A stretch of DNA of 61,432 nucleotides, filler included, from Bipalium vagum (Eukaryota), in NCBI GenBank assembly GCA_037834085.1. It is 3 parts of 3 records of this genome, joined end to end, with 100 filler letters (N's around TTAATTAATTAA, not from the genome) between each part and the next. Parts side by side here need not be neighbours in the genome. Positions count along the whole stretch, not along the records: positions 1 to 26,177 come from JBBMKC010159093.1; 2 more parts are not named here. One strand, 5' to 3'. The notes below the pieces were generated by a model that worked only from the letters and a program-made list of their open reading frames with translations, had not been told where the DNA came from and ran no database searches. The translations under genes were made by a program, and so were the position numbers. Below are positions 1 to 58,959 of this stretch, piece by piece. Each line of letters begins with the position of its first letter. Within the stretch, counting starts at the first letter, position 1.

Positions 1-481
1 AAATCTCAATTTCTGAGTGATAAAAAACTTGATACGAATTCATGGGTGGCAAAAAATGATGACTCGACTTTTCAATACCCAAATGTAATATATATATATA
101 TTTACATATACATATATAAATGTATAATATTAATATTACAACATATTATTTTTTATCTTAAATATTATATATGTATATATAGGTAAAAATTGAAAATATA
201 ATTTTTCATTTAATTTGTCGCCTTGCTAATATTAATAAACTTTTTAACGGTTATTTGTATTTGACAAGTTCATTGGTAGTAAATAATTTTTAAAATATAA
301 ATATATCTTATTAATGTGCTTAATTAATTTATATAATTTTAATTTATTTTAACATTTTTTGTGCTTAGCTTAATTAACAATTTATCATATTTTAAATTAT
401 AAAGATATTGCACTTATCAAATCTGCACACAGATTCAAATAAAAATATTTTTGTTCCCATCATCTTTCAACAATAATAATG

Positions 482-1260: not shown

Positions 1261-1992
1261 ATGATTGATTTATCTATAATTCTGGTTTTGATATTTTTTC
1301 GAAACTTCATCATCATCCTTGGTGACATTGGAAGGATTTCAGTTCGAGAATCGTCATCTCTGATCAATTTCAAAACGATCCACGACACTTGTGGCCAGTT
1401 CATTCCCATAACGAAAAATTGTGACCGGTCCCTCAATATTGTCGATGATTATTGCTACTCAAAGATTCATTTTACCCTTAAATATTGTGAACAGTTGTTC
1501 CAGAATAAAATCGATTCCTGCAGTGACATTGAGAAGAAAATCAAGGACCAATGTATGGAAAAGGTTGGATATATCAATGAAAAATGTGGAAAATATTTTG
1601 ATCAGCTACGACTCGTTTGTCAAATGAACTCCGACTATTTATCCGTAATGTGCGATAAATTGATAAAAAAGGAGGAGAGGCTTTGTGCTCGATTTAAGAA
1701 CAGGATCTACTTGAGCTGTCGTCGCGTTTACGAACATTATATGAATTATTGTGAGTCGTCCTTGTCGGACAGTTACCATTCGGATTTCTCAATTGACGAT
1801 TTGGAGTTCTTGTTTCGTCAGTTGGAAGAAAAATTTACATGGGTTAATACTGAATTTGATATCAATAGTTTTTCAATCAAAGCAAAACCAAACAATCAAA
1901 CTCTTGTGGAAAAGTTACAATTATTTCGAGGAGATTCAGTGGAAAAGAAGGATAAAGAAAAGGAAATTATGTGGATCGATATTTTATTATAA
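1261..1992 (+). CDS. 243-aa protein with 11-residue-periodic cysteines (C-x10 repeat), probably extracellular and helical; weak resemblance to the Cys-rich loop of DC-STAMP-domain (DCST1/2, Sneaky, SPE-42) proteins
   Basis: Longest real ORF, GC well above the flanks. Cys at residues 44,54,65,76,87,98,109,120,131,142,153,164. Hydrophobic N-terminus; AATAAA at 2096-2101. The true 5' end is uncertain. Confidence 0.75.
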   Translation: MIDLSIILVLIFFRNFIIILGDIGRISVRESSSLINFKTIHDTCGQFIPITKNCDRSLNIVDDYCYSKIHFTLKYCEQLFQNKIDSCSDIEKKIKDQCMEKVGYINEKCGKYFDQLRLVCQMNSDYLSVMCDKLIKKEERLCARFKNRIYLSCRRVYEHYMNYCESSLSDSYHSDFSIDDLEFLFRQLEEKFTWVNTEFDINSFSIKAKPNNQTLVEKLQLFRGDSVEKKDKEKEIMWIDILL

Positions 1993-2102
1993 TTTTTCTT
2001 AATCATTTATTTTTTTGTATAATCAAACTTTTATTTATTATTCTCTCATTTATTTGTAAATGAAAATAGTAGAGTTTTCTTTTAATATTTGACTTAATAA
2101 AT

Positions 2103-2829: not shown

Positions 2830-3290
2830 GGGTTTCATTTCTAGACATAACAGACGTTTACATCGAAGCACTTTTTCCACTGGTAGACATTCCATTAAAG
2901 CTCATTTCAAAGAAATTTTGATCCTTCTCCAAGAGGAATTTCATCATAGTATCCTTCATATCATCCTTTGAAACAAATGTTTGTCCTCGCATGTCTCTTT
3001 AGATGATTGGACAACCAGAAATCACTTGATTCCAGATCTGGACTGTAAGGGGAATGGTCCAGCTGCACAAATCCAGCTTTTGCTAATGTTTCTTGGAATT
3101 TCTTGGAAGTTTGATTAGAAGCGTTATCATGGAGCAAAAAAATCCTGATTCCGAGGCTTGCGTCGGATAGTTCAGGTTTTAAATAAGAAATTACTGTAGT
3201 AATCGGAATTTATGATTTCTTCATAAAATCTAACTTCAAGATGCTTTTTCAATCCCAAAAGACTGTTAACATGGCACATTTACAATGCAA
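2830..3290 (-). mobile_element. decayed mariner transposase fragment
   Basis: Minus-strand motifs MLTVFWD, LLHDNA and LDHSPYSPDLESSDF. Confidence 0.8.
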
Positions 3291-5959: not shown

Positions 5960-6885
5960 TTTAAGTTTTGGACAATTTCAAAATGAACCAGACCTGTGAA
6001 ATGTTGAAAATCTTCTTTAGGAACAATACAATGTCCAAATCTAGAGTCTCTGAATGGCATTCTCGCTTTTGTGAAGGCCGTGATGATACTTTCGATAATG
6101 ACAGAAGTGAGCGTCTATTTACTTGCAGAAATAATGAATTAAAGAAATTATTGAAGCCGATTGACGTATTACATTTAGAATTATTGAAGATGAAATTGGA
6201 ATCAATATATTGTTGATTGAGGATTTAGGTTAGAAAAAGATATGTTCACGGTTTGCTCTTCACAGCTTGACTCCTGAACAATTGCAATGCAGAGTTGATT
6301 GATGAAGAAATTTCCTTTTCATATGTGATTCTGGCCAAACTTTTATCAAACCAATTGTCACTGGTGATGGGTCATGATGTTTTCAATATGATCCTGAAAC
6401 CAAACAACAGAGCATGCAATGATGTTCAAACAGATTTCCAAAACAAAAAAAGTTATGGCTAAAAAAATCAAAGATTAAAACCCTCTTAGTCACGTTTTGT
6501 GATTCTGGAGTCATTTACAAGGAATTTTTACCTTCTGATAAAACAGTCAATGCTTTTTATTACAAAGAAATGATGTCTCGGCTTTTGAAAATAATTCGTA
6601 GAATAGAATTTTAGTACAGTACTAAAGGAAGTTAGAGTTTACTGCATGATAGCACACCTGCTCATTACTCAATAATCGTTTTCTGGTTAAAAAAGAGTTA
6701 TGGTTATCAACCACCTACCATATTCACCGGATTTAGCTCCAGCAGATTTCATGCAATTCCCAAATCTGAAAGCCTTACCTAAAGGAAGAAAGTTTCAAGA
6801 TATTGAGGATGTTCAGAAGACTGAATCAATGATTGACCGTGTTAATACTTTGTCTAACATTTCTGGGGATATAACAAGTTATTAG
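5960..6885 (+). mobile_element. near full-length decayed mariner (DD34D) transposase pseudogene
   Basis: HTH region SKSRVSEWHSRF, IVTGDGS*CFQYDPETKQQS, LLHDSTPAH, HLPYSPDLAPADF. Confidence 0.85.
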
Positions 6886-7587: not shown

Positions 7588-7861
7588 TCAGCCCAATCGG
7601 AAATATTTAGCCTTTTTTTCCATGGGAGACAAATAGTCTTTCTTTCCTAATCGAAAGTATCTGGCCCTCTTTCCCAGTCTGAAATATCTAGCACGCTTTA
7701 CCGCATCGATTTCTGCATCGGAAATGTCCTGACACTCTTCAAGGCAGGATGGAGATTTGTGGCAAAGACTTGCACAAATATTATCCTTCAATTCATAATC
7801 CATTGTCTTAACAGATGGTGTATGGATTATCATCATTATTGTTAAGGAGGACAGCAGGTAG
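7588..7861 (-). CDS. npp-22: neuropeptide prohormone, main coding exon: 2x ARYFRLamide + 1x AKYFRLamide
   Basis: KR-ARYFRL-GKR-ARYFRL-GKK-DYLSPME-KK-AKYFRL-G-stop: dibasic cleavage sites plus amidation glycines. Acceptor ttttatttattcag at 7862-7875 extends the frame to YLLSSLTIMMIIHTPSVKT. Minus-strand AATAAA at 7535-7540 and 7524-7529. Symbol is from recollection that planarian npp-22 encodes AKYFRLamide; orthology is unverified. Confidence 0.9.
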
Positions 7862-26277: not shown

Positions 26278-27468
26278 AATTTCATGCACAGATTTCATGC
26301 ACAGTTAGATTTGATCACACCAAAAAGGATCACAAAAGTAAAACAAAAGAATCAATGTTGATTTAGTTCATTTTGTACATCTGCTGTACCTGGGAGTCTC
26401 CACAGAAAGAAGAAACAGGACCATTCCATGACCGCAATCGATCCGGAAGATCTAGTTTAACCACAAAACAGGAAGACCGGTATATTATGATCAGTTCTTT
26501 GAGAAATCGCCGAAGTTCAACTTCAGAAATCACTGCTAATTTCAATGTCTCTCATGAAACAAAAATCAGCTCCACTACAGTAAAACGGCGTTTGCTTGAT
26601 GTCGGCCTAAGAGGCTGTGTAGCAGTCAAAAACCACGTCTAACAAAAGCGATTAACCTGGGCCAAAGAACATAATAATTGGACACCGGAAGACAGGAATA
26701 AAGTTCTTTGATCAGACGAATCCAAATTTGAAATTTTTGGCAATAAGCGTTGATCATTCGTCTGTCGTCGGCCTTGGGAAATTATGCTGGAAGAGTGTAC
26801 AGTGCAAACTATTAAGCATGGAGAAGAAAAGATCATGATTTCGGGTTGTTTTGGGGGTGGACAAGTCGGAAGATTTGTGAAAATTGATGGAAGAATGACG
26901 AAAGAAGTCTACTTGGACATTTTAAAGGAACATCTTTGAATTGTGGAGCAGAATTAATTGGCAAAGGATTCTTTTTCCAGCAGGACAATGATCCAAAACA
27001 CACTGATAAAGTGGTAAAGCAGTATTTAAGAGAGAAAACCGAAGGTTTTCTACCTGGCCATCTCAAAGCCCTGATTGCAACCCAATAGAACAACTCTGGG
27101 ATCATTTGAATAGAGAGGTGAGAAAAAATCCTCCAAGTGGAAATAGCAATCTTTGGTTATCACTTAAAATTATTTTGAAATCTGTTGATGGTCAGTACTT
27201 ACAAAAGTTGTGTGACAGACTACCTCGAATATGTCAGGCTCATATTAAATCTAGAGGTGGTCATTTTGATGAAAACAGCATTTAATTTAAATGTTAGTTA
27301 ATGTGCTTATTGTGTAAAAATACGTGTTATTTTTTATAAAAAATTTAAAAAAGTGTTTTAAAATTATTTATTTCTTTTATTGTTACCTTAAGAAATTTTA
27401 GAATGCGATCATTTCATTATAAAATAGCTATTTTATTAAGTGCGATTAAACTTATGGACGGTAGTGTA
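26278..27468 (+). mobile_element. Tc1-like (DD34E) transposon, 5' truncated, pseudogenised
   Basis: RSGRSSLTTKQEDRYI, VL*SDESKFEIFG, FFFQQDNDPKHT, WPSQSPDCNPIEQLWDHL; right end reads TA|CACTACCGTCCATAAG on the minus strand. Confidence 0.92.
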
Positions 27469-34250: not shown

Positions 34251-35215
34251 TACAGGGTCTTCCAAAAGAAGATTTACTACTTTTAACATATTAAATACTA
34301 AGTAGTTTTGTTTAAATAAAGTAATATTTAACATTATTCTAGCTAAACATTTGAAAATTAAATGTGGATCGTTATAATGTGCAACAACGGGCAGAAATTA
34401 TCAAAATATTTTATCAAAGCGGTAATTCAATTTCAGTAATCGTTAAAAAATTTAATGCAAAATTTGAGAAAAACAAATGTTCATCAAAACCAACAATTTA
34501 AAATCTGGTTAATGCTTTTGAAGCATTTGGCTCGGTAGCAGATAGACCAAAATCTGGACGACCTTGGTCTGCGCGTATACCTGAAAATATTGCAAGTACA
34601 CAAGAAAGTATTGAAAACAATAAATGCATCTCAACCAGTCATAGAGGACAGGAATTAAACCTCTCAAAATCCAGTTTGTCGCGAATAATGCATGAAGATT
34701 TGCATATGAAAGCCTATAAGCTGTTTGTAGTTCAGAAGCTGAAAGAATCAGACCATCAAAGTCCCCTGTTTTATTGTAATTTGTTGTTAGAAAGATCAAT
34801 TGCGGATCCTCATTTTTGGAAAAAAATCATTATGACTGATGAAATTCATTTTCACTTGAGTAAAGGTGTTTTTAATAAATAAAATTGTCAAATTTGGGCA
34901 ACAAAGCAACCCTATGTTTTGAAGGAAGTTTATATTAATCAACCAAAAACTATTACACAACTCAAAGACAACATTTCAGAACAAATCGCTATGATCTCAA
35001 TTGACTTATGCCAAAATGTTATGCAAATTCCATAAAATAGCCCAAACTTATAGGCTGCCAGAGGCTGTCATTTTAATGACATCATATTTATAATATAAAT
35101 TTTTGTAATATCTGTGTTTTAATAAAGGTATAAATAAAATTACTTGGCATTTTAATTTTTATGTAAGGAGAAATAGCGACTTAACATAGTAAAGCTTCTT
35201 TTGAAAGACCCTGTA
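34251..35215 (+). mobile_element. rosa/DD41D-like Tc1/mariner element with both TIRs and an internal deletion
   Basis: TA|CAGGGTCTTCCAAAAGAAGATTTACT ... AGTAAAGCTTCTTTTGAAAGACCCTG|TA; DRYNVQQRAEIIKIFY, SGRPWSAR, MKAYK, IIMTDEIHFHLSKGVFNK*NCQIW. Confidence 0.85.
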
Positions 35216-36420
35216 TTATTTATAATTTCATTTTACATAAAACTATAATCTCATCTTCTAAATACCATATATTATTTATTTGAATTCTGAAATGTTTAAG
35301 TTTCAGGAGTTCATGATAGAGATTTACTACGATAAAAATATATTTAGAATATAATATTTTACAATTATCAACTGCAGGCGTCTACATACTTCTAATCACG
35401 CTGGCCAGATTGGGATTGAAATCAATTTTGGTGGACCAAAATAAGTGGTTAAGGATTCTCTTATTACTATTTTCATTTTTATAATAATTAATAAAACAAA
35501 AAGTAATATTACAAAAGTACTAAGCAAACAAGGATAAATTACACTTAATGAGAAATTTATTTTAATTTTTGATTTTAAATTTTAATATTAATGACGGAAA
35601 AATTTGTTTAAATCTAAAACACCAATTATAAGCAATGATTGCAAGTGATCCTAAAATAAATTTTCCTTATAATTTGATTCCAGATACCTCTACCTGCAAA
35701 ATTTTGTACGCACATAAAAATTTTTACGCCTCCCAATTGTCAGATATTGGACTCGATTCCAGTCCAAGTTATACTTTCTTAATTTACACTAATTTAAATT
35801 AAATTTCATTATTGTTTCACGCAGTTTTCTTTTAATGATTTGTTAAAAAATTACATTTACTACATTATTTTATTAATAAATTACTGTTTATTACTTGTTA
35901 TTATTACTTGTTTATTATTTTATTTTTAATCATATTAATAACATATGTCATTAGATCTTCAGTTACATTTAAAAATTATAATTTTATTCAAGCTTTGCTG
36001 TTGTGAGGGTACTGTCGAAAACATGATATTGTTAATATTATCGTCATTTTCATTAAATTCTTATTATATGGATATGGTGATTCCGCATTACACTTTCATT
36101 TTTAAAATACATAAAATAGTATAAAAAAATTATTATACCTGTTTTACTTTAATTTTTTTAAGATTTGAGATAAGTTTTTGTGGATAAATTTCTTTTAAAA
36201 TCTAATGGCATTTTCATAAACTTCCGCTTAAGAGTCTTAGATAATTGTATTACAAATTAATTTAATCATAGTGATTAGGACAATTTTGTTAACAAAACTA
36301 TATCTTTCGATCTGAAACAAGTAAAACAACATAAATATTAATTCCCTAACGAAATCAGCTATTTATTATTATGTATTTATAAATTGAATCAATATCAGAA
36401 AAACAAAATTATCATTTTAG

Positions 36421-36722
36421 GTCTCGCTCGTGGCAAACTGTTTCTCATTCCTATAAGTCCACAGGATGGATATGGCTGTTGGCGTCCACTGTTATGATAC
36501 CAGAATTTTTGGTAGCAAATCTGGAATGGCTAAAAGGTTTGAAAGTATATAAATGTGCTGAAGTGTGGAATAACTATAATCATTACTTGAGTTTTACATT
36601 AGGTCTGTTAATAGTGATTTATATTATCCCTATTATTCTCATGATATATACACATGCCAGAATTGCATATTGCCTTCATAGGCGAGATGATATCTCATCA
36701 AACAGATTATTTAGAATATGTG
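36421..36722 (+). CDS. rhodopsin-class peptide GPCR, CCK/gastrin/sulfakinin-receptor-like; exon encoding ICL2-TM4-ECL2-TM5
   Basis: cattttag|G then SRSWQTVSHSYKSTGWIWLLASTVMIP...YKCAEVW...LLIVIYIIPIILMIYTHARIA; donor G|gtaaat. SR.WQT.SH..K is a hallmark of CCK-type receptors. Confidence 0.88.
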
Positions 36723-38259
36723 GTAAATTACTTTTACTTTTCAAATTATATAATTTTAAAAATGTGACTGATTTTATGGTTATAATTTTAAATCTAACTC
36801 CGTTAAAAGTTATCAAATATATAACAGTTTCAGTTGTAAAAATCAAGAAAAATCAACATAATAATTGAAAAATTAAACAAAATCCTACGTGAAAAATTAA
36901 GTATTAAAATGTAATTAATTTACTTTTTTAATTTCTCTTACCAGTAATTTCAGTAATCCCGTTAATCAAATAATCCCATTGCCTATCTTTGTTTGCTAAA
37001 AGGGAATTGCCTTTCAAAAATGTTATATTGTTGGATTATATATTTGTCAAACTCAGTGAATTGTATAAAATATATTTTCTAATTCTTTTTCAAAGAAATG
37101 TGCAAAATAATTGAAAAAAAAATGCTTATTTAAATTAGCTACACATAAAGATGAAAATAATTTAAAATTGTAACTTTATTTTTAATCTATCCAGTTATTT
37201 TTTTCTATTTGTTTTAATTTGAAATGTGTGACGAAAATGTTTTGAACTTCAAAGAAGTCATATAAATTTTTCCAACTGAGAGCGGAATTTGAGATTTAAT
37301 GATGAACTTCCGCTGATTACCCAACATGAGTTGATCATGATTTTTTGTGGACTACTGGAAAAAATCGTTGGGAATTACTTTAGAAATACAGAAAAAAGTA
37401 TCTCATACAGGCACGCGAACTTATATAAAAAGACTTTAATAATCTATAGGGAAATTTTGTAAATGTATTCCTCTTCATCTTACTTTATTAATGTTTGTTT
37501 GTTAGGTAATTAATTAAGTCTTATATTGATAGATTTGTGAAGATTACCAAGTTATACAAGAAAAAAATAATATTTTAACTACAACCTTTGATCTATTTGT
37601 GCATGAATATCTCAAAACATTTTCTTTATATTAAAATATAAATTATTATTATTGCTATTTTATTAGTAAAAGAAAGAAATCATTATAAGATAGAATCGCA
37701 ATTCTCATTTCTTTCTTCTCTTATTAACGGAATTATAATATAATATCAAATATAAGAAATATATAACAATAGTATTTGATTGGTATTAACATTAGATTAC
37801 TCTCTTGAAAAAATCAATATAATAAAAATAATATAAAGTTACTTTTTGAAGAAAAGAACTTAAACAATTATTAGAAAGCACAGTAAAAGTGCTTTACTGT
37901 AAAACTTAAACAGAAAAATAGTTACCGTAGAAAAAAGATTGCAAATAAGAACAAACCCCAAAAGATAATATCAAAGCGGAAGAATTTTATCGTTCTGGAT
38001 AAAGTTCACTGTACAAAAGAAGAATCAATATCTACAAAGTAGTTGATTTTAAATTTTTTAAGATTATTTAACGTAAAAGTTAATTAAATTCAAATAAGCA
38101 GTTTTAACATTTAGGTAAGATGCTATTCTTATTTATCCATTTACATAATATTTTTAACTGATAAAGCATAACTCAGGTTTAATGACTCAAAATTAAAACA
38201 GTATAATCTTTGATAAAACCTTGAATTGGTAAATAATTTTTTAATATCAATGTAATTAA

Positions 38260-41097: not shown

Positions 41098-41436
41098 TCA
41101 GACGTATTTTCAATATATCTCACAAATAGAATTTAGTAAATTCTTAAGGTAAATTTTTTGAAGAACATAATATTAATATTTATTATTTCAATATAAGAAA
41201 ATATAGAGGGGCCATAAAAAAATCGTTTTTATAAAAACCATTTAACGACACAAAAATAGATAATAATGATCTATTTGTGTACTGTAATAATATGTAGCTA
41301 AATATTTTGTTTTTTAAAAACTACATATATCACTAAAAAGATTTAAAATTCTTATAAAACCTTATGTAAACAGTCTTGATTTTAAAAATTTCAACCATGG
41401 TATTTCGGTTTTATTATCCTTATCATTTGTGTTCAG

Positions 41437-41637
41437 AAGACAAGTCGGAGATGGAAACGAGAAATAATAATCAAAACAGAAGAAACCCAGAACTTCAAAA
41501 TTATTATCAAAATCGAAAAATCCAAAAATTATTAACGGTGGTGGTGCTGGAATTTTTCTGTTTCTGGACTCCAGTATTTTTGGCAAATACATGGTTAGCA
41601 ATCCACAAAGATTCTGCTAAAAATTACATCTCGTCAG
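41437..41637 (+). CDS. CCK/sulfakinin-type GPCR exon encoding ICL3-TM6-ECL3
   Basis: tttgtgttcag|AA, phase 1 compatible with the previous exon (G+AA=Glu); RKIQKLLTVVVLEFFCFWTPVFLANTW; donor G|gtaatt. Confidence 0.88.
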
Positions 41638-41725
41638 GTAATTAATAATTGAAATTTTATAATAATTATAGTGACTTGTTCTTGAATTAATTTAAGATTT
41701 GAGCAATTTTTTCTCAATTTCTAAG

Positions 41726-55139: not shown

Positions 55140-55870
55140 AAGAATTTAAAGTTAGCTGACGTAAAATGTTTCTGCCTTTTTTTTAATAAAAAAAAATTAA
55201 TTTTTTCACATAAAAAATGAACTTTATTAAATCAAATATGTTCCTTTTTGTTCTGTAACCTTTTTGTTCTCCATTACCATAATTTTATCACTGTAAAATT
55301 ACGTAGATTAATGATTGAAAAACTGCAGAATGTTCATTTTAGCAGTCTTATTTTGATGCTAATGTAACTCTGTTAAGAAAGTTCTGTATAGAGCGGAACA
55401 AGTGGTAGTCCGATTGTGCCAGATCAGGACTATAGGGTGGGTGTATCATAACTTCCAAATCAAGTTTTCTCAATTTTACCTGAGTCATGAGAGATGTATG
55501 TGCTCGTGCATTGTCCTGATAGAACACAATGCCTGTTCTGTTGACCAATTCTGGCTGCATTTTTTGAATCAATTGATTCAAACTTGTTAATTTCGCACAA
55601 TAGAATCCAGAATCAATTATTTTGCTAGGTTTTAGGACCTCATAATGCACGTTTCCTTTCCAATTGTACCATACGAATATCATTAACTTTCTTGAGTTGA
55701 CCTTGGATTTGCAGTCGTTTATGGATTTTTACCACTTTTTGACCAGGATCTTTTCCTCACAATATTGTCATATCTTATCCATTTTTCATCATCGGTTATC
55801 AACCGTTTACTTTTTTTTAATTATCAATCGTTTAAGAAATGGTTCCATTACAGACAAAAATTCGATCACT
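55140..55870 (-). mobile_element. mariner (DD34D) transposase remnant (intronic)
   Basis: ORF 55348-55683: WYNWKGNVHYEVL, FYQDNARAHTS, HPPYSPDLAQSDYHLFRS; upstream T.DDEKW.RYDN. Confidence 0.9.
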
Positions 55871-56286: not shown

Positions 56287-58133
56287 TATAAAAATAATAA
56301 TATTATATATAAATAATAATATTATATATAAAATATTATTAATTATAATAATAATATAAATTTTTCTATTTATTGAGATCTCGATCATCTTTGTGAATTT
56401 TTAATCATTCATCCTAATTTATTGAGATCCATCAAAGTTCTCCATAAATCGCGTATAATATTTTGGAAATTGTTTTAAACAAGTTCGTTTCATAAATTTA
56501 ATAATGTGACTCGTAAAAGATTTTTAAATAAATAAAACTTTTCTAATTAAATTAATTAAATTAAAAAAAAATACGTTATATTTCAGGTTGATGCATAAAT
56601 ACTGTCAAATGGTTTAATCTCACCATATATAGGTGACGTATAACAAATGGAAGTAATGGTAGGTGTACAAGTGGAAAATGACGACTTTTATGGGTGCAAA
56701 AATTTTTTTTTAAAAAAAACTAAACAAAATTCTTATTCAAATTTATTTCTATCGCTTTACCGAACTTTGACCAATTTATGAAGCTGTTTGTGAATACTGT
56801 AAAACAGTGCTCATTTTAATACGATCCTTTTATCAATCCAATGTTTGACATCCTTGAAGTTGTGCGAGTACTACTTAGACAGAAAATGAGATATTCATCT
56901 AAATAAGTAATAATCAGATAGAACAATGTCTGACGAATACGGCGGTGATATAAGACATCTTTATCAAGTACTTCCAAAGTATACCTAATCCAATTTGAAA
57001 ATGAGGTAATTAATAAATGAGGAAGTTCACATTAAAAAAAATTAGATATCAGGTTGAAAAGAAAATCGATTATGGTTCGATATAATCAAGGACTGGTCAC
57101 TAAAACATTTTGTGAAATGTTCTACCCGTGACAGAAACAATGGTTTTTTCCATTTCTCAAATAAGATCTAACTTGGATGAAGTCAGCTTAAATCAAATAT
57201 TGCAAAAAATTGTTTGACTTTGAATTTATGCTGACCAAGCATCAAACTTCAAGCATTTTCATTATGTAGAAAAGGTTCAATAATAAATCACATTAAAAAA
57301 AGTTTTTTATCGATATCTGCGCGTAGCCCGGGCAACAAAATCAGATCTTCATTTGGTGGCTTCAAAAAGAAGTTAATCATTATGAATTGTTTTAGAAAAA
57401 CCAGACAGCAATCTCAGAATATTTATGATAATATTATTTTGGTTTGAAGAAAAATTTGTGACAAACGACCTTGAAAATCTTAACAAAGTGACAAGTGCCA
57501 AAATAGTACCCAATCATCTGTCATTGTACTGACAACGGCAATCCTGACAAACTCGGCCAGAATATTTCGGCTGTCAAGTATCAACATATTAATATATATT
57601 TACCGCAATAAAACAAAACATGGACAATGATGAAAAATAATAAATTTAAATAAATCAAAAATAAATAAATAAACAAAAATCGATATTCTCATTAAAACAC
57701 TAAAAATATTTTCATAACATGTATTGATTGATTTCACTTTGAATTATATTTTATTTTTTTACTGAGATATTGTAATATAAATTTTGTAATAACATTGCTT
57801 AAAGGTTTCTTCGAAACCCCTGCTTTGTGTGATGAAGACATTCAGAAAGCGTTCTCCATGTAGAATATACTTAGAGAACTAAAGGTAAGAGAACTTTCTT
57901 TCTGTAAAATGTTAAGTCATTCTATTATTTTTTTGTTCAGCTGGACAAAAAACTGTTTTCATATTAAATAAACAGAAAATTTTCCCTTCATAGGCAAAAG
58001 AAGAACGTAGACAAAAATCGATAAAAGGGTTTCTGAACGAAAACAAAATGAAAACTAATATCAATTTAATAATTACTTTGTAAAAACCCTTGAAATTTGA
58101 CATATCGCTTTACCACAAAAAGGATTTACTTAC

Positions 58134-58561
58134 ACTAATGCAGGCTACAAGTACTGCACGGTAGTCTACTCCCTTTACGAGAGGCCTATTATGTGGATAT
58201 AGATTTTCAGTTTGCTTGCTACCTCCTAGAGGAAACATAAAAACTTGTCCGTGCAGAGATTCTTTCATCACTGAAGTAGCATTAAGCTCAGCTGCAATAT
58301 ACGGGATTTGTTGTTGTGATAAATGAGAACGATTAGTTCGAGCTAAAAAACTAAATATAATATCTCGGGATCTGTACATTTCAATGTCTTCAGATATATT
58401 ATACTGTCTAGCAACTCGAGTTATTAGGTAATTGGCGTCTACGACGATGAAATAGATACTAATTGATCCGTATTCAAAACTTGGCTGATTGACCGCAAGA
58501 TATATCACTGAGTTCTGTCTATCTACTTTCCCAATTTTCAATTCTGGCACGTCTCTGGGTG
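58134..58561 (-). CDS. membrane-proximal FN3-like ectodomain exon of a receptor protein tyrosine phosphatase-like protein
   Basis: cttttgcctttgtag|CA ... AGT|gtaagt; G.ISIYFIVV, PYIAAEL, F.LG, NRPLVKGVDYR match the juxtamembrane domain of R2/R3 RPTPs (YIAAEL..F.VGD..N.PL.PG..YR). No phosphatase exon is visible in the window. Confidence 0.82.
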
Positions 58562-58959
58562 CTACAAAGGCAAAAGAAGTATCAATGAATTAAAACAAAT
58601 CTTCAAATCGACTTACTTAATTTTAATTTTGTTAGAAAAAGTACCTTATAACAATGATTGTATATGAAAAAATTAATTGACTAAAAATTAATTATCAACC
58701 TTATGAAGACAATTAGAACTGCTTTCATTCAACATTGTTACATGACATTTTCGAAATATGTCTAATTAATAATATTGAATAATATTTCGTTTTTCCAAAT
58801 AAATTCTCTNNNNNNNNNNNNNNNNNNNNNNNNNNNNNNNNNNNNNNNNNNNNNNNNNNNNNNNNNNNNNNNNNNNNNNNNNNNNNNNNNNNNNNNNNNN
58901 NNNNNNNNNNNNNNNNNNNNNNNNNNNNNNNNNNNNNNNNNNNNNNNNNNNNNTAATAA

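Follow-up and report, generated by a model that had tools for sequence, protein, structure and literature searches.

In a 61,432-nucleotide stretch of DNA from Bipalium vagum, which was analyzed as a whole and is here called the window, we found an open reading frame that is almost certainly a real gene, encoding a 243-residue protein (P0001) in which twelve Cys residues form a ladder retained in full by its homologue (P0002). The interpretation that we lean towards, with modest confidence, is that P0001 is a secreted antiparallel two-helix hairpin of about 8 nm, folded at Gly103 and carrying six nested disulfides, which might serve outside the cell as a stiff rod with a structural or adhesive function. 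To judge from the sequences, P0001 and P0002 constitute an unnamed two-member family, apparently lineage-restricted, and the protein adds a variant to the known design of the disulfide-stapled helical hairpin.

The ladder gene and its secretory leader

The features of the gene are collected in Table 1. Base shuffling gave no open frame as long as that at 1261-1992 (0 of 5000 shuffles), and the homologue shares its start and its stop position. The stretch 815-2094 was also found within one contig of sequencing run X1, with zero differences; X1 may be the source sample, and this contig speaks for no more than the consistency of the sequence. We considered whether the ladder could instead lie on an internal exon, as a donor-like GTGAGT begins at 1751, and rejected this because P0002 retains 34 of the 79 residues past that site as well as the identical stop position. 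We saw no acceptor with a pyrimidine-rich tract in the interval 1150-1420. The first-pass annotation had placed the protein at 1390..1752, which is correct for the ladder alone; the gene spans 1261-1992 and includes a hydrophobic leader that had been missed.

That leader is hydrophobic in both homologues despite only 24% identity between them, with Kyte-Doolittle means over 19 residues of 2.47 (residues 2-20 of P0001) and 1.66 (P0002). It is also the sole hydrophobic segment, since the corresponding maximum after residue 25 was 0.44 in P0001 and 0.88 in P0002, in agreement with the earlier observation that no transmembrane segments follow the ladder. Secretion, previously raised as a possibility, can be regarded as likely on the basis of the leader.

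Immediately 5' of the start codon, the region 1040-1260 has a lower AT content and short open frames, as might be seen in a 5' UTR or the remnant of another exon. Further 5', at 796-843, a 15-bp unit is present in three to four head-to-tail copies, which sit in a stretch of high X1 depth, as expected of a dispersed repeat.

Table 1. Features of the ladder gene, with positions in the window
Feature	Position	Strand	Basis or remark
Uninterrupted open frame, 243 residues (P0001), likely a single coding exon	1261..1992	+	Shuffles and homologue P0002
Hydrophobic leader, residues 1-21, likely signal peptide	1261..1323	+	19-residue Kyte-Doolittle mean, both homologues
Predicted hairpin arm 1, C44-K101, six Cys, conserved acidic patch 60-63	1390..1563	+	Models and alignment
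Predicted turn, residues 102-106, midway between C98 and C109, G103 and N106 conserved	1564..1578	+	Model coil and alignment
Predicted hairpin arm 2, E107-C164, six Cys, conserved basic patch 144-148	1579..1752	+	Models
Predicted amphipathic helix 179-198 after the ladder	1795..1854	+	Low-confidence model, pLDDT < 50
RGD tripeptide R223-G224-D225, shared by P0001 and P0002	1927..1935	+	Alignment
Conserved C-terminal W-I-D-x-L-L	1972..1989	+	Alignment
First AATAAA 3' of the stop codon, possible polyadenylation signal	2096..2101	+	Weak in AT-rich DNA

Regularity and helical periodicity of the ladder

The Cys residues of P0001 lie at positions 44, 54, 65, 76, 87, 98, 109, 120, 131, 142, 153 and 164 (codon starts 1390, 1420, 1453 and so on to 1750), spaced by 10 residues once and then by 11 residues ten times, i.e. 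one C-x9-C followed by ten C-x10-C steps. Ten equal Cys spacings thus follow one another, while in 200,000 shuffles of the protein no run exceeded 5, a value reached in one single shuffle. When the 11 units starting at C54 to C164 were compared without their Cys, the mean pairwise identity was 6% for protein and 30% for DNA; since the units are that unlike in sequence, recent duplication fails to explain the 11-residue period, and from the DNA identity we could reject the idea that a 33-bp unit was recently copied in tandem to give the ladder. Pro is absent between C54 and C164, with P49 falling inside the 10-step and P210 in the tail. The spacing pattern, the non-repetitive spacers and the Pro-free run had all been described in the first-pass annotation and stand as given there. 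A search of the window in six frames found no second C-x10-C-x10-C stretch, nor was there a second copy of the ladder gene in it.

Eleven residues correspond to three helical turns, so that the Cys residues would come to lie on one stripe of each helical arm. Such an arrangement along one helix face, proposed earlier, is supported by the periodicity of the remaining residues of the ladder. Their hydrophobicity peaked at 98.5 (P0001) and 99.0 (P0002) degrees per residue, to be compared with reference values of 98.2 for a hendecad (11/3) and 102.9 for a heptad, the observed peaks being far from the latter, and the hydrophobic power was matched by only 2 of 20,000 shuffles for P0001 and 22 of 20,000 for P0002. 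Set out in rows of 11 residues, the ladder is hydrophobic at e and h and mixed at position d. Relative to the Cys stripe, the hydrophobic moment is tilted by about 33 degrees to one side, an effect stronger in arm 2, and some apolar surface would therefore stay exposed after pairing of the arms.

The midpoint of the twelve Cys falls between C98 and C109, and the center of the ladder carries a conserved Gly-aromatic-Ile-Asn, G103 and G110 being the only conserved Gly within the 11-spaced run. Arm 2 has a net charge of +5 in both homologues.

Predicted fold and register of the hairpin

With AlphaFold2 (AF2), the best full-length model had helices at 47-102 and 107-171 separated by coil at 103-106, at a poor pLDDT of 52 and a pTM of 0.40 (pLDDT 40-43 in the other four models). 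Prediction of residues 37-170 alone gave a best pLDDT of 80 (62, 56, 52 and 47 in the others) and pTM of 0.53, again with coil at 102-106, and in the best model arm 1 was itself interrupted at 82-87. Both predictions thus break the helix at the conserved G103.

The shape and center of the hairpin were inferred from the ranges over which known structures matched the AF2 model. Using VIA-align, short hairpins aligned to 65..142 (two rows), 48..159 and 66..140; the ranges 65..142 and 48..159 each sum to 207, as do C98 and C109, and other hairpin rows centered about two residues later (59..153). The structures matched are hairpins and coiled coils of a generic kind; the absence of a given family from them excludes nothing. 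Foldseek with the models against the PDB and a viral library gave zero matches at E ≤ 0.001.

As an additional measure of register we used a toy electrostatic model of two ideal 11/3 helices, with column-preserving shuffles and nine registers in all. Only one of six hairpin registers was charge-complementary, namely that turning between C98 and C109, which sets the acidic patch 60-63 opposite the basic patch 144-148; scores as low were obtained in 41 of 2000 and 53 of 2000 shuffles for the two homologues. In-register parallel pairing was unfavorable (1187 and 1435 of 2000 shuffles as low), whereas with an offset of 22 residues the score of the parallel pair came close to that of the hairpin (96 and 187 of 2000). 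Given the nine registers tried and the closeness of the shifted parallel pair, the charge test gives modest support; it is crude, and the two sequences are non-independent. Having only two sequences also meant that covariation could not be used. Taken together, we consider an antiparallel register centered on C98/C109 to be probable. Where a hairpin or a coiled coil had previously been suggested, the hairpin is thus favored by the AF2 models and the structure matches, and the in-register parallel coiled coil is disfavored by the charge test.

An unlikely alternative is that the chain makes no turn at all and forms helices of 18 nm, with two chains lying antiparallel in the same C98/C109 register as a domain-swapped dimer, or that hairpins are polymerized by disulfide exchange, either of which would give a covalent filament suited to an egg capsule, rhabdite or mucus. 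By geometry, an unbroken helix would indeed reach 180 Å, and the charge test is unable to separate the two arrangements since the contacts in the domain-swapped dimer are those of the hairpin. The conserved Gly-aromatic-Ile-Asn at the center, with coil there in both AF2 models, speaks against it.

Even less probable is that two to four chains form a parallel coiled coil held together by inter-chain disulfides. An a/d/e/h hydrophobic pattern suits hendecad bundles in either orientation, and the pattern in the ladder is compatible with this reading, as is the score of the pair shifted by 22 residues. The in-register scores and the net positive charge of arm 2 in both homologues nevertheless argue against it, and it leaves the even number of Cys and the central Gly unexplained.

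For the antiparallel hairpin, we suggest the following course of events. The hydrophobic leader would direct the chain into the ER, where disulfides form. Folding at residues 102-106 is predicted to pair C98 with C109, C87 with C120, C76 with C131, C65 with C142 and C54 with C153, and a sixth predicted pair, C44-C164, would be accommodated through one residue of slack at the Gly-Pro 10-step, with C44 to C98 spanning about 81 Å by geometry. Helix 179-198, or else another copy of the protein, may cover the hydrophobic stripe left over beside the Cys stripe. As a guess, matrix or a cell-surface integrin might then be bound by arm 2, through its basic face, and by the tail with its RGD.

If this fold holds, nature would here offer a model of a straight rod made of two helices and cross-linked by a disulfide at every third turn, having three times the rungs of twin-CX9C hairpins, from which protein design and the theory of coiled coils could benefit. 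For planarian biology, it is a further conserved protein, apparently restricted to one lineage and predicted to be secreted.

Search for relatives

P0002, an unnamed protein of 244 residues from Logan, was the one match among 308 candidates of near length. It is 52% identical to P0001 with the same start, length and stop position, and it has all 12 ladder Cys in register with unchanged spacings, plus one additional Cys in the leader, so that it is a relative with the same Cys spacing, as asked for in the first-pass annotation. Identity is 64% over the ladder, 24% over residues 1-21 and 43% over the tail. Longer homologues were not found among 7089 candidates (weak evidence, by the search's own caveat), nor shorter ones among 189. 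A HMMER search with the two-sequence profile against 1.84 billion representatives (E ≤ 0.001) gave four matches, being P0002 and three spurious ones: P0003 and P0004 are HYR_4C repeat proteins with scores summed over 37 and 6 short stretches, respectively, and P0005 has no Cys ladder. In scans by pattern, none of 362 matches in metagenome contigs and none of 28 in prokaryote genomes was confirmed. The protein collection does not hold P0001 itself and its coverage of this animal group is thus incomplete, making the small number of relatives weak evidence; orthologues in other flatworms may simply be absent from it.

Among family profiles, the Pfam model EST1_DNA_bind matched P0001 at E 0.0003, under its cut-off, and MCM_N, EGF_TEN, Colipase-like and two NCBIfam rows were likewise all sub-threshold. 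A sequence search of the PDB with P0001 gave four rows at E 0.03-1.3, none significant, and among the paper titles and abstract openings listed, we found none on this protein or on a long C-x10 ladder hairpin. The notion that it represents an undescribed family accordingly stands insofar as no named family was matched in the libraries searched, but the disulfide-stapled hairpin as a design was already known.

Comparison with known protein families

Kinship with the DCST1/2-Sneaky-SPE-42 proteins, which are expressed in sperm and needed in fertilization, was suggested by the earlier annotation and found no support beyond the Cys spacing. These proteins have five or six membrane helices (available parts of PMC3053230 and PMC8989947). 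SPE-42 is described in the consulted portion of PMC3053230 as a six-pass protein with six conserved extracellular Cys, 9-13 residues apart, between membrane helices 3 and 4, together with a RING and a DC-STAMP domain that in this family includes TM5 and TM6. The 9-10 residues between the Cys of P0001 are within that range; P0001 has instead twelve Cys and no flanking membrane helices. No DC-STAMP domain was matched in P0001 with Pfam at E up to 1 or 10, there is no membrane segment before the stop, and neither P0001 nor P0002 has any Cys past residue 164 that could contribute to a C-terminal RING. As only the Cys spacing fits, and three defining features given in the available text of PMC3053230 are absent, P0001 is not a member of the family. 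We also regard it as very unlikely that P0001 is a detached, lengthened and soluble copy of the extracellular Cys loop with a role in fertilization. The Cys spacing of SPE-42 and the prediction of DCST1/2 as a long (260 Å) assembly (PMC11052572, in the part available) would be in line with such an origin; against it stand the lack of membrane segments, DC-STAMP domain and RING, and no DCST-type protein was seen among the four HMMER matches or, as weak evidence, among longer proteins. The accessible parts of PMC13192892 and PMC11052572 hold no description of disulfides in the DCST loop.

A lipid or membrane binder resembling exchangeable apolipoproteins, in which amphipathic 11-mer helices are stapled by disulfides, appears just as unlikely. 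P0001 does share the 11/3 amphipathic periodicity characteristic of these proteins, an amphipathic helix follows its ladder, and a fragment of apoE3 was found among many generic structure matches (Z 8.3, rmsd 3.3, 78 aligned). No apolipoprotein model in Pfam was matched at E up to 1 or 10, however. Exchangeable apolipoproteins function by opening of their helix bundle, which six cross-links would be expected to impede.

Least probable of all is that P0001 belongs to the mitochondrial intermembrane space as a CHCH-type protein in extended form, or that it is a ladder of reduced thiols binding metal. Weak matches to CMC4/p8MTCP1, a protein with three disulfides, would be in line with this (PDB 1hp8 at E 0.049; Pfam CMC4 at E 0.021). 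Against it, the Pfam match has 15.6 bits for a cut-off of 28.9 and is Cys-driven over 40-50 residues, there is only one C-x9-C, the signal-like leader would argue for a secretory route rather than the Mia40-dependent import typical of CHCH proteins, and Cys residues 16 Å apart along a helix should, by geometry, form no metal cluster.

A twin CX9C (or CX9C-CX10C) motif together with a significant family profile match was not found in P0001. The predicted principle of construction is still similar. In Coa6 and Cox6B, C-x10-C occurs on an antiparallel, disulfide-tethered pair of helices (available part of PMC6743065), and the likeness of P0001 to CHCH/twin CX9C proteins lies in such a helix pair with nested disulfides at a spacing of about three turns, which in P0001 is predicted only. 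The difference is that the latter are small mitochondrial proteins with two disulfides, whereas P0001 would have six rungs at 11-residue spacing and a signal-like leader. The ladder protein would likely work like an extended CHCH hairpin without being a member of that family.

A long helical hairpin, as predicted for P0001, is also seen in Maxi (PDB 4KE2), a hyperactive type I antifreeze protein from winter flounder. With the full model it led the VIA-align rows (170 residues aligned at Z 10.5 and rmsd 7.4, 0% identity), and 132 of 134 residues of the core model aligned to it (Z 8.3, rmsd 4.0), although its Z equalled that of coiled coils with no relation to it and did not rise above the background that long helices give, so that the match concerns shape only. 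Maxi has an 11-residue repeat, is Ala-rich and is not known to carry a Cys ladder. Finally, the planarian PROG proteins form a planarian-specific tandem gene family with signal peptide, coiled coil and internal repeats (bioRxiv 10.1101/179986, in the part consulted). Compared by description only, they provide a precedent for lineage-specific secreted coiled coils, but the word cysteine is absent from the main text as available there, and the ladder gene is single in the window.

The tail and possible adhesion

The hydrophobic moment of the predicted helix 179-198 was 0.43 and 0.32 in the two homologues. Composition alone would give 0.024-0.034 RGD tripeptides per protein; the conservation of the tripeptide is unexceptional, as a run of five identities in the tail arose in 48% of shuffles. 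[quoted passage not shown] We take the conserved RGD as a weak lead to adhesion, and an extracellular structural or adhesive role can be put forward tentatively. The more specific proposal of a flatworm-specific adhesion ligand, in which a hendecad hairpin zipped by six disulfide rungs would bring its RGD tail to an integrin, on a design with a Cys at every eleventh residue that the SPE-42/DCST loop appears to use independently, is unlikely; if true, the C-x10 ladder would be a general and undescribed recipe for rigid extracellular rods.

Other features of the window

The GC content is 16-30%. A decayed mariner/Tc1-like transposase piece lies at 55348-55728 on the minus strand (Transposase_1, E 9e-09 over 55348-55725), and by eye similar decayed pieces were seen at 2961-3209 (−), 5965-6880 (+), 26367-27282 (+) and 34502-34882 (+), with no Pfam match for 34505-34879. 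An open frame of 159 codons at 58113-58589 (−) has the appearance of one exon from a larger gene and may resemble a receptor ectodomain; neither Pfam, above cut-off, nor the PDB sequences gave a match to it.

On the minus strand at 7591-7860, preceded by a T-rich AG acceptor, we noted a coding exon whose product would be a neuropeptide prohormone, with a pro-region containing four Cys and three A[RK]YFRL-amide peptides by prediction; by eye this exon matches Smed-npp-22 without being identical to it (PMC2953531, supplement file 5). Together with the GC content and the mariner relics, it points to a host that is likely a triclad planarian other than S. mediterranea. A rhodopsin-family GPCR exon is present at 36386-36865 (+; 7tm_1, E 1.4e-09). 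A putative second exon of the GPCR, at 41370-41642 (+), reads like helix 6. This peptide-receptor-like GPCR gene lies about 29 kb from the neuropeptide gene, as counted along the coordinates of the joined window.
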